DNA from: Candidatus Nanohaloarchaea archaeon
GTDB lineage: Archaea > Nanohalarchaeota > Nanosalinia > Nanosalinales > Nanosalinaceae
DNA length: 10,497 nucleotides
Assembly (NCBI GenBank): GCA_041639695.1
Contig: JBEQBQ010000023.1
Location: 1 to 10,497 of the forward strand
Reading direction: 5' to 3'
In this document: positions 792 through 6,825 of the stretch, in pieces
Position numbering within the stretch: position 1 is the stretch's first letter
Layout of the letters: every line of letters begins with the position of its first letter
Translations under genes and position numbers: made by a program
The notes under the pieces: model-generated
Seen by the model: the letters and a program-made list of their open reading frames with translations, nothing else
Database searches by the model: none
Told to the model about the DNA's origin: nothing

Positions 792-830
792 ATCGTTAGA
801 GTGTTAATGTTAACCGTCCAAGTACTTCTT

Positions 831-918
831 GACCCCGTAAACCGGGGTTGACAACCAATAGTTCCGCCGAAAATTGCGGAGCGGGTCGGGCTTGGAAGCT
901 TCGCGCTTCGGCCCACCC
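831..918 (+). ncRNA. Candidate structured non-coding RNA with three consecutive hairpins; family unknown
   Basis: Hand folding gives H1 831-837/843-849, H2 861-867/876-882 and H3 883-899/905-918. Each stem contains a G-U wobble only on the + strand. Hand-counted GC is 55/88, versus 14/39 and 12/51 in the flanks. TTAATG at 804-809 upstream and TTCACTTTTC at 919-928 downstream. Confidence 0.55.
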
Positions 919-928
919 TTCACTTTTC
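919..928 (+). terminator. Possible pyrimidine/oligo-T terminator after the hairpin element
   Basis: TTCACTTTTC directly follows the strong H3 stem. Archaeal intrinsic terminators are oligo-T rich. Confidence 0.35.
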
Positions 929-937
929 CAATATTCA

Positions 938-969: not shown

Positions 970-2139
970 ATGGAAGATCGTACTCAAACGGTCGAAGGAT
1001 ACCTGGAGCAGGCAGTAAGCACGTTGATCCAGAAACCAGGAGTCTTCCCAAGCATAGAAGACCGTGAAAAGAACGACGGCTTTCCATGGAGGCCGGAAAT
1101 TGACCTCGAATCATCAACGATTTCAGTAGATTTAAACAATCTAAAAGATGATGAACTAAGGTTCTATTCGGAAATATGGACCGAAGTTTATTCCGAGAGA
1201 GCGATGCAAGATGTTCTCAACAACAGGATTAGATTTCTTGAAAACGAATTAGATATAGAAGTTGAAAACCCCTCTGCTGTCTTCCTACCATTAGAAACAG
1301 GTGGAAGCGGTTTCTATGACAAAGATGAACACCGAGTAGGCGTAGATAGATCGAACTTCCCACATGTACAGCTTGGGGAACCCATCCAAGTAATATGGCC
1401 TGGAACAAACCGGACTCTGAGCCACGAGTCCGTCCACGCAGCACAGATGATGACAGACCGGTTTGAAGAACTTCATTCAGATATCGCTGAAAAGGATGTC
1501 TACAACCAGGAATTCACGGATAACGTTGATAGGGCAGGAATGGAGGCATTAGCACGGTTTGAGGAAGATCCTTGGGGTAACCATATGCAGAGAGGGAGAG
1601 AGCTTGAGAAAGGTTTGTCGAAAGTTTATCGTCTGCCCGGTCTTCTAGAGAAGGATCGTGGACCTGAAGGAACTGAGAGAAAGAGGTTGAACGGCGGAGG
1701 AGGTTTCCAGTTAGGAGATCATCTCTACAGCGATCCCTACGGAATGGCCGATGTAATCGCATACTCCGTGAAGAACTACTTCAAGACCCGAGATGATATT
1801 GAAAACCACCGTAGGGAAACAAGAAAGGCTCTGTTCGATATAGCAGCTGATGCGGAGGAATGGGAGCGAATGCTCTCAGGCATCTGGAAAGAACTAGGGT
1901 ATCCCGACTACCACAAAATATTCGAGGAAAACTACCGAAGAATTCAGAACGACCCTGTATACGCTAAGAACGAGCTAAACCGTCTTAAACAAGAAGTGAG
2001 AGAAAAAGAAAAAGTTGAACCGGAAGAATACTACGAAGTAAGATCCTTTATCCATGCTTACGAGGAGACAGGTAGAAATGCTCCTGACCAGCTCATGAAC
2101 TTAGCCCGTGACCTTTATGATCTGGAGAAAATCCGGTAA
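970..2139 (+). CDS. Uncharacterised acidic protein with zincin (HEXXH...E) metallopeptidase-like motif
   Basis: 389 aa from ATG 970, preferred over the track's TTG 874, which lies inside the hairpin element. GFYDKDEHRVGV strand, then TLSHESVHAAQ (1423-1437) and a downstream Glu in GMEALA (1543-1545). No obvious signal peptide or TM segment. Confidence 0.8.
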   Translation: MEDRTQTVEGYLEQAVSTLIQKPGVFPSIEDREKNDGFPWRPEIDLESSTISVDLNNLKDDELRFYSEIWTEVYSERAMQDVLNNRIRFLENELDIEVENPSAVFLPLETGGSGFYDKDEHRVGVDRSNFPHVQLGEPIQVIWPGTNRTLSHESVHAAQMMTDRFEELHSDIAEKDVYNQEFTDNVDRAGMEALARFEEDPWGNHMQRGRELEKGLSKVYRLPGLLEKDRGPEGTERKRLNGGGGFQLGDHLYSDPYGMADVIAYSVKNYFKTRDDIENHRRETRKALFDIAADAEEWERMLSGIWKELGYPDYHKIFEENYRRIQNDPVYAKNELNRLKQEVREKEKVEPEEYYEVRSFIHAYEETGRNAPDQLMNLARDLYDLEKIR

Positions 2140-2788: not shown

Positions 2789-5449
2789 TCACTCGACACG
2801 GTTACCAAACTTCCGGGATAGCAGCCTCCTGAAACCGTACTCGAGCACCGTGAACACTCCTAGTGCCAGGGCGACCTGAGCCCAGTGATGTGGCTGGAGC
2901 GGAACGGTCTTGAAAAGACCGGAAAGCGGCGTGTAAAGTATTGCCAGGTGTGTCAGTGAAGCGAAGAGTATCGCCGCAATCAGGTAGAGGTTTTGTTTAA
3001 GTCTAAGGCCGTAGTCCCTTCTGATAACCTGGAACATCATTATCTCGAAGAATGCCAGTGCCATGAACAGCATGGTCTGTGCGTATGCAAAGTTCTCGAT
3101 GTTCAGGAAGAACACCGGCAGCATGATAATAGCTGCGAGAGGTCCTGTAACCGCTATCATGGATAAAATCTTCTTATCAAGTATTGGTTCATCTCTACCC
3201 CTAGGATCCCTCTCCATAATGCCTTCGACTTTTGGATCCTTTCCGAGCGCGATCGCTGGAGGTCCGTCGGAAGCGAAGTTAACCCATAGGATCATCAAAG
3301 CAGTTAAGACAACCGAGTCACCTTCGGAGAAGTACTCAGGGAAGAACAATCCTCCTATAAGCGTTCCGAGGAAGACGAACATGACTTCTCCCGAGTTGGT
3401 TGATAGAAGTTGATTAGTCACTTTCCTAATGTTGTCAAAGATCGCTCTTCCTTCTGCGATCGCATCCCTGATAGTAACAAAGTTATCGTCCTGCAAAACC
3501 ATGTCGCTGCTTTTCTTCGCAACATCAGTCCCTCTCTGACCCATAGCTACACCGACATCGGAGTTCTTTAGGGCCGGAGCATCGTTAACCCCATCTCCTG
3601 TCATCGCAACGTTGTATCCCTGATCCTGTAGTGCCTCTAGTATTCTTACCTTGTGCTGTGGAGATACACGTGCGAAGATCTCGACCTCAGTCACCTTCTC
3701 CTGAAGCTCTTCTTCGGATAAATCCTCGATCTCCGGCCCTCTCATCGCGCCCTCCGGATCGAAACCTAGTTCCTTTCCGATAGCCTTCGCTGTCTCTATG
3801 TTGTCGCCGGTTGCCATTACCACACCGATGCCTGCGGTTCTGCAGTCTTCAACTGCTTCCTTGACCTCTTCTCGGGCCGGATCCATCATTCCCTGAAGAC
3901 CGAGGAACACTAGTTCCGACTCTAGCTCTTCTTCATCCATGTTAGGATCCTCTACCTGTTTCCTCGCGAATCCAAGAACCCTCAAAGCATCCCTAGCCAT
4001 CTGGTGGTTTCTATCTAATACTTCCTGCTTTCTCTCTTCTGTAAGCTCTTTCTCCTCACCGTCAAGAAGTATCCTGTCGCATCTTTCTAGAACGGTTTCC
4101 GGAGCACCCTTCATGTAGGCAGTATCATCTTTGACAACAGTCATCCTCTTTCTGTCGGAGGAGAAGGGAACACTTCTCTGTCTTTCATCACTTTCCTCAA
4201 TACCTGCCTTCATGCCTGCCACAAGTAAGGCAACTTCTGTGGGTTCTCCTCTAAACCCATCTTCAGTTTTCTCAGAGTTGTTGCAGTATACACCGCACTC
4301 AAGAAGAGGTTCCAAATAACCTGAATCAGTTTCGTGACCGTTACGTCTGAAACCGCCGTTTATGGCTGTACCAGTACCTCCGACATCAAACTCCTCGCCC
4401 TGGAAGTAAAGGTTTTCCACAGTCATGGTTCCTTCTGTCAGGGTACCGGTCTTATCGGTTACAATATAGTTTACTGAGCCAAGCGCCTCGACGACAGGAA
4501 GACGTCTTACAAGAGCATCCTTCTTCAACAGTTTTCGAGAGCCTAAAGCAAGAGTTAAGGTAACGATCGCGGGTAAAGACTCTGGTATCGCAGCAACTGA
4601 AAGTCCGATTGCTAGCAAAAGAATCGTGATAACATCAGCCCCGGTAAGAAGTGCCTGGATCACTGCCACAAGGGAAATAATACCTATTACAAGCATGCCG
4701 ATCTTCTTGCCCATAGCGTCGACCTCCTGCTGGAATGGCGTTCTCTCTGTTTCAGCATCTTCCAGCTCTTCAGCGATATCTCCTACCTCAGTATCCATGC
4801 CTGTAGCAGTTACAACAGCTTTACCTCTACCCTTCACAACGTGGGTGTTCATAAATACCATGTTGTCCCGATCTGCTAATGCCGAATCCTCCGAAACAGT
4901 GCCAGAGTGTTTCGAAACTTCCTGGCTTTCACCTGTCAAAGCGGACTCGTCTGTTGAAAGTGATTCTGCCTCGATAATTCTTGCGTCAGCAGGAACAGCG
5001 TCTCCCTGCTCCAGATAAATTATATCTCCGGGAACGATTTCTGTAGAGTCCACCTCGATCTTCTTTCCATCACGCTTGACTGTCGCGTTCGGCGTGGACA
5101 TCTTCTTCAAAGCCTGGATAGACTTCTCTGCTCTGTAATCCTGTATAAAACCGAATAAACCGTTTGCCAAAAGTATTAGAAGTATTACTCCCGCTTCCCT
5201 GTATTCAGGGCTGTGGCCTGGGACTAATCCTATTCCCAGAGATAGTATGCCGGCCGCAAACAACAGGTAGATTAGATTATCCTGGAACTGACTAAAAAGT
5301 ATCCTCCATGCTGAAGTCGAATCATCGCTTTCTATACGGTTCTCACCGTTTTCTTCAAGGCTTTTTTCTGCATCTTCGCTGCTTAAGCCTTCCTCTGAAG
5401 TTCCGAGGTCCGAGTAAACTTCTTCCAGAGACTTACTATGTTGCGGCAT
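2789..5449 (-). CDS. Cation-transporting P-type ATPase, P2A (Ca2+/SERCA-like) subtype
   Basis: 886 aa from ATG 5449 (MPQHSK). Motifs TGES, DKTGTLT (phosphorylated Asp), KGAPE, TGDN and GDGVNDAPALK; TM4 AIPESLP, TM5 STNSGE, TM6 LWVNFASDG. The 72-codon upstream extension in the track overlaps the divergent gene and is unlikely to be real. Confidence 0.95.
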   Translation of the reverse strand: MPQHSKSLEEVYSDLGTSEEGLSSEDAEKSLEENGENRIESDDSTSAWRILFSQFQDNLIYLLFAAGILSLGIGLVPGHSPEYREAGVILLILLANGLFGFIQDYRAEKSIQALKKMSTPNATVKRDGKKIEVDSTEIVPGDIIYLEQGDAVPADARIIEAESLSTDESALTGESQEVSKHSGTVSEDSALADRDNMVFMNTHVVKGRGKAVVTATGMDTEVGDIAEELEDAETERTPFQQEVDAMGKKIGMLVIGIISLVAVIQALLTGADVITILLLAIGLSVAAIPESLPAIVTLTLALGSRKLLKKDALVRRLPVVEALGSVNYIVTDKTGTLTEGTMTVENLYFQGEEFDVGGTGTAINGGFRRNGHETDSGYLEPLLECGVYCNNSEKTEDGFRGEPTEVALLVAGMKAGIEESDERQRSVPFSSDRKRMTVVKDDTAYMKGAPETVLERCDRILLDGEEKELTEERKQEVLDRNHQMARDALRVLGFARKQVEDPNMDEEELESELVFLGLQGMMDPAREEVKEAVEDCRTAGIGVVMATGDNIETAKAIGKELGFDPEGAMRGPEIEDLSEEELQEKVTEVEIFARVSPQHKVRILEALQDQGYNVAMTGDGVNDAPALKNSDVGVAMGQRGTDVAKKSSDMVLQDDNFVTIRDAIAEGRAIFDNIRKVTNQLLSTNSGEVMFVFLGTLIGGLFFPEYFSEGDSVVLTALMILWVNFASDGPPAIALGKDPKVEGIMERDPRGRDEPILDKKILSMIAVTGPLAAIIMLPVFFLNIENFAYAQTMLFMALAFFEIMMFQVIRRDYGLRLKQNLYLIAAILFASLTHLAILYTPLSGLFKTVPLQPHHWAQVALALGVFTVLEYGFRRLLSRKFGNRVE

Positions 5450-5451
5450 TA

Positions 5452-5469
5452 TATCTGTACTTTCAGATA
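5452..5469. promoter_or_regulatory. Inverted repeat TATCTG-N6-CAGATA, possible operator of the ATPase gene
   Basis: Perfect 6-bp arms (5452-5457 and 5464-5469) between the ATPase start codon and a TTTTATT box at about 5474-5480 on the - strand. Confidence 0.3.
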
Positions 5470-5608
5470 CTCCAATAAAAAAACAATTCTTAGCACAACC
5501 AGCTCTAATAGAATTATAGGTACAACTTCTTGGTTCTACGATAAAACAAAATAACTTGGAGACAGATTGTTGAAAGAGAATAAAAGCATTCAAGCAGAAC
5601 CCGGGACC

Positions 5609-6382
5609 ATGGGTATAAAGTCCGCAAGCGATGTCCTGAACTCGATGATTGAGAAGGGGCTTCACGAGCTTGACCGTGACTTTACCGGCCTGTTTCTTTC
5701 GAGTCTTTCAGCCGGACTGGATATTGGTTTCGGCCCGCTTCTAATGGCAGTCATACTTACTCTTTCTACGGGAGGTTACGGCGACCTAGGAACCGAGCTT
5801 CTTCTGGCAAGCGCTTACGCAGTCGGATTTATACTGGTTATACTCGGACGTTCAGAGCTTTTCACCGAACATACTACACTAGCGGTAATACCTGTACTTG
5901 ACGGCAGTTCATCGCTAAAAAAATTGGGACGACTCTGGGGAACAGTCTATATAGGAAATATTATAGGAGGTATGATCTTTACTGGTCTGACACTATTATT
6001 AGTGCCTGAACTTGGGGTAGTAAATCCAGAAGCATTTGGTACAATCGCATCTAAGCTGATAGGTCATCCCGCACATTATATCTTTGTAGCAGGAGTGTTT
6101 GCGGGCTGGCTTATGGGACTGATGGCGTGGCTAGTTACAGGAGCGAAGAGCACCACCAGCAGAGTATTCATGATCTGGATGGTTGCCGCAACTATTGGGT
6201 TGCTTCACCTCCCGCACAGCATAGCAGGAAATGTTGAAGTCTTGTTCGGACTTCTGCTCTCCTCGGTCACAACCGTTCAGTACTTGTCATTCCTCGGATT
6301 GGCAACGTTAGGAAACGCTGTAGGCGGCGCAGTATTTGTAGCACTGCTGAAATACGGGCATGTGACAAGGGGAGCAAAGTAA
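5609..6382 (+). CDS. Formate/nitrite transporter (FNT) family channel
   Basis: Hydrophobic protein with about 6 TM segments. FNT motifs GRSELFTEHT, W..VYIGNIIGG, HSIAGN and TLGNAVGG. Start uncertain: ATG 5609 (AATAAAAG about 25 nt upstream) or TTG 5567/5570. Confidence 0.9.
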   Translation: MGIKSASDVLNSMIEKGLHELDRDFTGLFLSSLSAGLDIGFGPLLMAVILTLSTGGYGDLGTELLLASAYAVGFILVILGRSELFTEHTTLAVIPVLDGSSSLKKLGRLWGTVYIGNIIGGMIFTGLTLLLVPELGVVNPEAFGTIASKLIGHPAHYIFVAGVFAGWLMGLMAWLVTGAKSTTSRVFMIWMVAATIGLLHLPHSIAGNVEVLFGLLLSSVTTVQYLSFLGLATLGNAVGGAVFVALLKYGHVTRGAK

Positions 6383-6503: not shown

Positions 6504-6531
6504 TTAATTTTTGGGATTTCTATTTTTCTTT

Positions 6532-6825
6532 ATGGGGAATAAGATTGCCAAGAAATACTTGCATCTAATTATTTCATTTACTGATGGAGCTAAGACTGCG
6601 TCTGAATTCGAGAGCGAATATTTGGCTGAGTTTAAGCAGGAAGATGATGAGATGCCAGAGAAAATATTTGAACCACTTAACTCACTGTTTTTTGCAGCTG
6701 ATGCATACTGTGAGGATCCAGAACTGAGAGATCAGCACGATATTGGAGACGAAGAATTCCTCGAAGAGGCAGTCTCAGCACAGAGGAAGTTAGAGCAGCT
6801 CATAGAGGACGATGATACAAACTAA
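6532..6825 (+). CDS. Colicin D immunity-like protein (Colicin_immun/ImmD fold), orphan
   Basis: 97 aa from ATG 6532. Pattern YLHLIISF.DG..TASEFESEYL...LNSLFFAADAYCEDPELR...IGDEEF.EE parallels the colicin D immunity family pattern (LF....ITA.EF...LF.AA..F.PD..R...ID...L..EV). Recognised by eye, not by search. Confidence 0.75.
   Translation: MGNKIAKKYLHLIISFTDGAKTASEFESEYLAEFKQEDDEMPEKIFEPLNSLFFAADAYCEDPELRDQHDIGDEEFLEEAVSAQRKLEQLIEDDDTN

Follow-up and report, generated by a model that had tools for sequence, protein, structure and literature searches.

A three-helix element between two genes

The DNA analysed was a stretch of 10,497 nt from Candidatus Nanohaloarchaea archaeon, contig JBEQBQ010000023.1 (the window; all coordinates are positions in it, and its genome is designated G000). 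Between an open reading frame (ORF; 84-791, + strand) with a YgjP-like metallopeptidase domain (Pfam, E 7e-47; stop codon TGA at 789-791) and the ATG of the next gene at 970 lay a GC-rich element, which very probably represents a gene of its own, predicted to encode a structured RNA of a new family. The gap (792-969, 178 nt) was the longest of the eight gaps between window ORFs taken as genes. The element started 40 nt past the YgjP-like stop codon, and the next gene lay downstream on the same strand. The island at 831-918 had 55 G or C in 88 positions, against 14/39 (36%) and 12/51 (24%) in its flanks. An earlier reading made from the letters of the window (the sequence-only reading) had reported the gap as 178 nt and long for the window with the same base composition, and all of these figures agreed when recomputed. 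The TTAATG box 22-27 nt before G831 (804-809), the T-rich run directly 3' of the last stem (TTCACTTTTCC) and the TATA-like box of the next gene (GATATAATTG, 938-947, before the ATG at 970) that it had named were also verified.

RNAfold of positions 825-925 (+) returned three hairpins in series with a minimum free energy (MFE) of -45.4 kcal/mol. Dinucleotide shuffles of the same region gave a mean of -31.0 ± 3.2 (z -4.51), and none of the 200 was as stable. The minus strand folded more weakly (-41.0, z -2.82), with 2 of 200 shuffles as good. The stems were P1 (829-837 with 843-851), P2 (861-867 with 876-882) and P3 (within 883-918), exactly the three that had been described before. The G-U wobbles claimed for all three stems on the + strand were located at U830-G850, G831-U849, U862-G881 and U892-G910. 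The tip of P3 in the window was a 5-nt loop, the short form of this helix.

Conservation and covariation

Homologues of the element were found in 18 genomes and in metagenomes. The covariation set comprised 42 matches. They made up 35 distinct rows, of which 33 were full-length and two were truncated at contig ends. Across the 35 distinct homologues 98.4% of cells held standard pairs and 18 of the 29 pairs had changed on both sides (122 cells), as counted in an alignment that was fitted to the structure of the covariance model and favours that structure. None of 500 shuffles reached any of five covariation measures. When the 3' partners were slid by 1-3 columns as a control, only 31-52% of cells remained paired, and double changes were left in 0-6 pairs. 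Independent MAFFT/RNAalifold alignments of 7 and 22 sequences recovered the same helices. The fact that the structure was kept with compensatory changes in other genomes indicates that it goes beyond chance, and the conservation and covariation that the sequence-only reading had named as a check were present.

Several unpaired positions did not vary at all among the 35 homologues. In the P1 loop U838-A839-A840-A841 (UAAA) was invariant, and the fifth loop base was U in 33/35 and C only in the window's genus. The conserved half of joiner J1/2 consisted of A857 A858 U859 A860 and ran on into G861 U862; A857, U859 and A860 were invariant (35/35), and position 858 was A in 29 and G in 6. G869 of the P2 loop, the U862-G881 wobble and the P3 bulge U893-G894 were each found in 35/35. 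Pairs of P3 without variation (33/33) were G883-G885/C916-C918, G888-G889/C913-C914 and A896-A897/U907-U908. The element is thus a conserved, strand-specific three-helix structure with invariant loop, joiner, wobble and bulge bases, present once per genome. It was assigned to the + strand because the U-G wobble is invariant, the box lies upstream and the T-run lies downstream.

Short and long forms

The 33 full-length distinct sequences comprised 22 long forms (131-152 nt) and 11 short forms (94-103 nt, including that of the window). Homologues in other genera carried 45-55 nt extra at the tip of P3. In the long form, P3 opened into a three-way junction that bore two further hairpins, P3a and P3b, both of which covaried. 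Both forms occurred within one genus (short in G000 and G002, long in G001), and likewise in G066 versus G021 and G033. A tree built from the core columns was weakly resolved; on it, the short form required 2 changes if only well-supported branches were counted, and up to 5 otherwise. Since both forms are found within genera and the change was repeated, the apical module is dispensable and the core of about 90 nt is the functional unit. The natural short and long forms already delimit this minimal core.

Copy number and distribution

When 60 relatives were searched by BLASTN, clear homologues came from seven genomes of the window's own family. R1, a covariance model derived from seven sequences, detected the RNA in 18 of the family's 50 genomes, which represent 8 of 21 genera and include 10 of the 23 genomes at least 90% complete. 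A second model built from 18 sequences (R2) was searched against 70 genomes at order and phylum level and returned the same 18. With R2, the 20 genomes from the four sister families gave no match, although filters had been relaxed and E<=1 was allowed, and five high-quality family genomes without a first match held no divergent copy at E<=1. The match in the window itself covered 829-926 and scored 101-110 bits (E about 1e-22 to 1e-24).

Genome contigs of 185,579 species were also searched with a degenerate pattern of the core. It matched 15 nanohaloarchaeal or unclassified archaeal loci, all 15 of which passed the covariance model; by record title they included Ca. Nanosalina sp. J07AB43 and VS9-1, Nanohaloarchaea archaeon SG9 and M3_22, and a Ca. 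Nanohalobium sp. Five bacterial loci with the pattern all failed the model and were put down to chance. Metagenome contigs, with hypersaline metagenomes among the sources, held 37 pattern loci; 24 passed the model, and the 13 that failed were again regarded as chance. No pattern match was obtained in viral contigs or in phage and plasmid collections. In the collections searched, the RNA family is confined to one family of Nanohaloarchaeota, to which Ca. Nanosalina and Ca. Nanohalobium belong by record title.

The RNA was single-copy in G000 (971 kb, 38 contigs), and each of the 18 RNA-bearing genomes held one copy, two matches in G001 being one gene at overlapping contig ends. The G001 gene was split between C21:5969-6053 (contig end) and C18:43-184 (contig start), with the break inside the apical hairpin; the two contigs probably overlap and could be joined. 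A 20-nt match at C2:66394 in G000 was rejected as chance and belonged to no Rfam family. A chance cluster of GC-rich hairpins, or a dispersed repeat such as a miniature inverted-repeat transposable element (MITE) or a repetitive extragenic palindrome (REP), would explain the GC-rich palindromic look of the element and nothing more. No repeats or target-site duplications were seen, and the single copy per genome and the covariation in three helices refute this explanation, whose probability we take as negligible. The element is not a MITE or REP, the alternative against which the sequence-only reading had proposed a copy-number count.

RNA carriers were scattered over a LysRS tree of 41 genomes and needed 9 changes, of which well-supported branches force at least 8; the mean over shuffles was 13.2. 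Neither this single-gene tree nor the RNA core tree is strong enough to tell vertical loss from transfer. Within one near-identical pair, G064 carried the RNA and G032 (89% complete) did not, and such differences may be due to incomplete bins no less than to loss.

Predicted promoter and terminator, and flanking genes

An A/T-rich box stood at a fixed distance upstream of the RNA in all 18 genome loci (GTTAAC in 10; ATTAAC, GATAAC and TATAAG among the variants in the other 8), its TTAA beginning about 27 nt upstream of the first P1 base. At the other end, TTT occurred within the last 8 model positions in 27/33 sequences. The genes for signal recognition particle (SRP) RNA, RNase P RNA, 5S rRNA and many tRNAs in G000 had similar TTTTAAC, GTTAAAAC or TTTAAAA boxes upstream, and TTTTCC-type runs followed the SRP RNA, RNase P RNA and 5S rRNA genes. 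The boxes of the G000 stable-RNA genes lay about 20-40 nt before the mature 5' end and provide a usable promoter consensus for the lineage. ORFs inside the homologues were negligible: the longest from ATG to stop had 24 aa, and the median length was 3 on one strand and 0 on the other.

The A/T-rich box presumably acts as promoter and the T-run as terminator. The ends of the RNA were placed by promoter spacing and the T-run, and transcription as a discrete stable RNA is suggested by the same signals. Sequence signals and structure standard for a standalone archaeal stable-RNA gene are present in this predicted gene. The main proposal of the sequence-only reading, a standalone + strand noncoding RNA (ncRNA) of no known class that has a promoter and a terminator to itself, is supported by the box in 18/18 loci, the T-run, the covariation and the like signals at stable-RNA genes of G000.

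Flanking genes and their strands differed between the 18 genome loci, and the RNA is for that reason neither an untranslated region (UTR) nor a leader. The only neighbour cluster shared across genera was the YgjP-like gene, which lay upstream in G000 and G002 and downstream in G003 and G064. A riboswitch or leader would stand before one gene family on the same strand; here the downstream genes differed between loci and the nearest downstream ORF was on the opposite strand in 9 of 18. G002 lacked the 389-aa gene that follows the RNA in the window and had the RNA 36 nt from a rhomboid gene, and G000 and G002 differed by a 1.2-kb gene insertion or deletion right after the RNA.

These comparisons bear on a cis-acting element, which could belong to the YgjP-like gene as its 3' UTR or terminator, or to the next gene as its 5' leader or riboswitch. 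The arrangement in the window, 40 nt after one stop codon and upstream of a gene on the same strand, is what such an element would show. However, both flanking genes vary, and the RNA has its own conserved predicted promoter box. A 3' UTR of the YgjP-like gene, which had been offered as the second choice, fails because that gene is downstream in two other genera and occurs in only 12 of 50 genomes, a set that differs from the set with the RNA. The next gene's 5' UTR had been discounted at the outset, rightly in view of the differing downstream genes. The cis explanation is largely refuted already and is highly improbable. Coordinates of the RNA, its parts and other ORFs of the window are listed in Table 1.

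Table 1. Predicted RNA gene, its parts and further ORFs of the window.
Feature	Positions	Strand	Observation
TATA-like promoter box GTGTTAATGTTAAC (putative)	802-814	+	TTAA at 804-807, 27 nt before G831
Whole RNA (predicted), about 88-96 nt	831-926	+	Covariance-model match 829-926
Hairpin P1, 8 bp, loop U838-A839-A840-A841-C842	830-850	+	Fold; double changes in 7/8 pairs
Joiner J1/2, unpaired in MFE and consensus structures	851-860	+	5' half variable, 3' half conserved
Hairpin P2, 7 bp, loop 5-10 nt	861-882	+	Double changes in 4/7 pairs; U862-G881 wobble invariant
Hairpin P3, 14 bp, bulged C887 and bulged U893-G894	883-918	+	Double changes in 7/14 pairs; 100% of cells paired
T-rich run TTCACTTTTCC, likely archaeal transcription terminator (putative)	919-929	+	T-runs in relatives
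389-aa ORF directly after the RNA	970-2139	+	No Pfam family
P-type ATPase ORF	2789-5665	-	
Formate/nitrite transporter ORF	5567-6382	+	
104-aa ORF	6511-6825	+	Colicin-like immunity family PF09204 (E 3.5e-13)

Two further observations were made on the window. PF09204 is a bacterial family, unusual for a nanohaloarchaeon. The listed starts of the P-type ATPase and formate/nitrite transporter ORFs overlapped by 99 nt (5567-5665), and at least one of the two start codons is probably over-extended.

Search for known RNA families

Rfam 15 (4227 families) gave no match at the gathering score in the whole window. At E<=10, positions 740-1000 gave three chance-level matches, the best with 15.5 bits against a threshold of 83, and a long-form homologue gave four, also at chance level. 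The cmscan search that the sequence-only reading had proposed therefore assigned the element to no known family.

Individual classes were considered in turn over the 33 full-length sequences. ARAGORN found no tRNA in the window; the hairpins stand in series without a closing stem, GTTCRA occurred in 1/33 and CCA after the last helix in none. SRP RNA (C3:18932-19199, 120.4 bits), RNase P RNA (C27:3974-4324, 85.5 bits) and 5S rRNA (C3:44062-44177, 68.6 bits) were located elsewhere in G000 by model matches, the SRP RNA being complete, and none of these three models matched the element at E<=10. A C box (RUGAUGA) was found in 0/33, and a D box (CUGA) within the last 25 nt in 0/33; CUGA occurred somewhere in 21/33 sequences, never near the 3' end, and in the rows inspected it lay in the P2 loop. 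ACA followed P3 in 1/33 and ANA in 2/33, and the bulges of P3 were limited to one of 1 nt and one of 2 nt on the same side of the helix. ARAGORN, the motif counts and the Rfam models thus agree with the earlier claim that tRNA T-loop, C/D box, SRP and RNase P signatures are lacking.

Two more specific candidates were set aside. A divergent SRP Alu domain gave no model match at E<=10, and G000 has its own SRP RNA elsewhere. A presumed likeness of GUAAUAG and GGCUUAGAAGC to the GTPase-associated region of 23S rRNA would suggest a mimic of that region; the partial 23S rRNA of G000 did not contain that motif, the best local alignment was insignificant, and the idea was dropped. The 16S rRNA of G000 was not assembled, and its 23S match (C28:46-2126) spanned model positions 16-2974. 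Since these positions fit into only 2081 nt, the rRNA of G000 is partial or collapsed in the assembly.

A ligand-binding or catalytic RNA acting in trans would suit the compact core, with its invariant junction, bulge and loop bases and its G-U wobble. On the other side, riboswitch and ribozyme families of Rfam gave no match even at E<=10 with the short or the long form, no conserved gene association hinted at a ligand, and there was no sign of a closed multi-helix junction or a pseudoknot. We consider this explanation very unlikely.

A proposed protein-bound RNA and its alternatives

The following mode of action is proposed. Positions 831 to about 926 (+) would be transcribed from the TATA-like box about 27 nt upstream, and transcription would end at the T-run. 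Its conserved core consists of P1 with the UAAAU loop, a joiner ending in ARUAGU, and P2 with its U-G wobble directly abutting the bulged P3; the apical two-hairpin module on P3 is optional and missing in the window. Loop, joiner, wobble and bulges may fold into one fixed three-dimensional surface to which a protein binds, and the RNA may be either the RNA part of a ribonucleoprotein or a regulator that sequesters a protein. It would act neither through long base-pairing nor in cis. Recognition of the core by a protein is suggested because many paired and unpaired positions are fixed, others covary freely, and a whole module can go. The protein-binding mode taken by itself remains tentative, falling slightly short of an even chance, and the explanation as a whole (own gene, new family, protein-bound stable RNA) we hold to be evenly balanced.

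Another explanation is a trans-acting base-pairing small RNA (sRNA), in which the joiner CCAAUAGU, the P1 loop UAAAU or both would pair with mRNAs and the hairpins would serve mainly for stability. It shares the standalone gene with its own predicted promoter and terminator, the conserved unpaired stretches are there, and a patchy, non-essential distribution is typical of regulators. However, those stretches are only 5-8 nt long, and the many invariant paired positions and bulges are not needed by an sRNA built from a seed and a scaffold. The joiner complement ACTATTGG occurred 14 times in G000 against about 30 expected, and was absent from the partial 23S rRNA, 5S rRNA, SRP RNA and RNase P RNA of that genome; no target emerged from this search. 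A base-pairing sRNA is accordingly judged unlikely, though it deserves to be kept in view.

The genomic setting was compared for candidate partners. Nuclease, restriction-modification (R-M) or toxin-antitoxin type genes lay within about 4 kb of the RNA in many loci and were varied (YgjP-like, VRR-NUC, Dcm, MmeI-like methylase, PIN+MNT, PD-(D/E)XK, GmrSD, SNF2-PLD). In G002 the distance to the RNA was about 6 kb for Dcm and NgoPII and about 11 kb for a type I R-M system. Ordinary backbone genes were also near: LysRS and a TraB-family gene within 4-8 kb of the RNA in G000 and G002, G008 and G012, and two MBL-fold genes with GlmS in G008 and G019. The stretch G002:C1:251000-279795, within about 20 kb of the RNA, contained Dcm with an NgoPII-type endonuclease, a second YgjP-like gene beside HsdR, and HsdS; its counterpart in G000 lies beyond the contig start. 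Only the G001 locus had a gene for ribosomal protein L7Ae (L091:821-1195) downstream of the RNA, at a distance of about 640 nt and with aIF5B after it.

Two proteins were tried as partners and rejected. The YgjP-like gene adjoined the RNA in 6 loci, on either side, and lay 40-65 nt from it on the same strand in the three loci measured (window, G003 and G064). Its phyletic pattern did not match, with the gene in 6/18 genomes with the RNA and 6/32 without. VRR-NUC was a neighbour in 7/42 loci and occurred in 28 of 50 genomes, 15/18 with the RNA versus 13/32 without. This co-occurrence is partial, and the genes are mostly unlinked (in G000, for example, they lie on different contigs, and in G008 they are 51 kb apart); because related genomes are not independent, the contrast of 15/18 with 13/32 is weak and serves as a lead only.

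It is conceivable that the RNA is tied to a flexible part of the genome rich in nuclease and defence genes, as partner or regulator of a nuclease such as VRR-NUC or as an insertion landmark like tRNA genes. The neighbours just described, the adjoining YgjP-like and VRR-NUC genes, the 1.2-kb insertion difference between G000 and G002 right after the RNA and the position of several RNA copies on short contigs or at contig ends all point that way. Against it, no single gene is always adjacent, the YgjP-like and VRR-NUC patterns are as given above, and VRR-NUC is far away in most genomes. No partial duplicate of the RNA marked an island border, viral contigs, phages and plasmids gave no match, and LysRS, TraB, the two MBL-fold genes and GlmS are backbone. 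This explanation is quite improbable, and the narrower form of it, in which the RNA would be a dedicated subunit or regulator of a flexible-genome nuclease-type protein, with VRR-NUC as the best lead, is more improbable still.

Several points weigh against the protein-bound RNA proposed here, beside the pair counts from an alignment that favours its own structure. Among the sequencing runs searched, one DNA metagenome run and no RNA run contained the window, so that expression, RNA ends and abundance are conjectural. No gene was a constant neighbour of the RNA, and no partner protein emerged from the neighbourhood and co-occurrence comparisons. The short conserved single strands could equally serve as base-pairing seeds. 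Two complete single-contig genomes of the family lacked the RNA, and the LysRS-TraB-MBL interval, which is kept in the high-quality genomes G006 and G018, contained no homologue there with filters off (best E 1.3, partial). The weak match in G018 was rejected as a divergent copy, as it folded no better than shuffles (z 0.20). Since the interval lacks the RNA in both genomes, at least some absences are real, and an RNA with real absences that is found in only 18 of 50 family genomes is not essential. Non-essentiality suits a core ribonucleoprotein no better than it suits a regulator or an RNA with an accessory role.

The family is a clear example of a structured RNA gene that is restricted to one lineage, has covariation support and has been overlooked by annotation pipelines and Rfam. 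Its alignment and covariance model could seed a new Rfam family, and it is a concrete target for study in cultivated nanohaloarchaeon-haloarchaeon co-cultures. If a protein partner exists, the RNA would belong to a new ribonucleoprotein in highly reduced genomes, where each retained gene is informative. If the nuclease-partner explanation were true, RNA and protein would make up a system specific to nanohaloarchaea that serves genome defence or DNA transactions and has no described counterpart in DPANN archaea.

Comparison with known RNAs

The closest topological likeness is to the Alu (5') domain of archaeal SRP RNA (RF01857), which also has a hairpin, a short conserved joiner, a hairpin and a long bulged helix. 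SRP RNA is likewise GC-rich, and the TATA-like box and T-run of the new RNA resemble those of G000's own SRP RNA gene. In contrast to the Alu domain, the new RNA has no helix 2 enclosing two hairpins, and its joiner is 9-14 nt long and not a UGUAA-type turn. It also lacks an S domain, and the likeness of GGGUCGGGCUUGGAAG to helix 8 is contradicted by the covarying GAAGC/GCUUC pairing. The likeness to the Alu domain is topological only.

Archaeal H/ACA and C/D guide sRNAs are, like the new RNA, small, stable, hairpin-rich and encoded by separate genes. Unlike them, it has neither box of the C/D class and almost never an ACA (0/33, 0/33 and 1/33), and neither a pseudouridylation pocket nor a K-turn/K-loop pattern can be read from its helices.

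To our knowledge, few lineage-specific RNAs have been described from DPANN archaea, and for the nano-sized DPANN archaea we know of almost no characterised ncRNAs beyond the universal ones. Orphan 'motif' families of Rfam resemble the new RNA in being defined by conservation and covariation only, with a narrow range and no assigned function; it differs in lying outside the 4227 families of Rfam 15 and in coming from a DPANN lineage.

Five very highly expressed ncRNAs, four of them unclassified, are reported in a study of Ca. Nanohalococcus occultus SVXNc (Reva et al. 2023, PMC10266531). As described there, they have a hairpin-hinge-hairpin-tail form, one is common to a second cultivated genus, and there is no BLAST match in other prokaryotes. 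A metatranscriptome study mentions one 266-nt nanohaloarchaeal intergenic RNA (PMC7002113). Literature searches, in which the SVXNc ncRNAs were compared by description only, found no account of the present family. Both the unclassified SVXNc ncRNAs and the new RNA are nanohaloarchaeal small RNAs without a known family; by description (PMC10266531), the former have no match in other prokaryotes, whereas the new family occurs in 18 genomes. The RNA is a new family of a familiar general kind, set apart from the SVXNc ncRNAs by description only.

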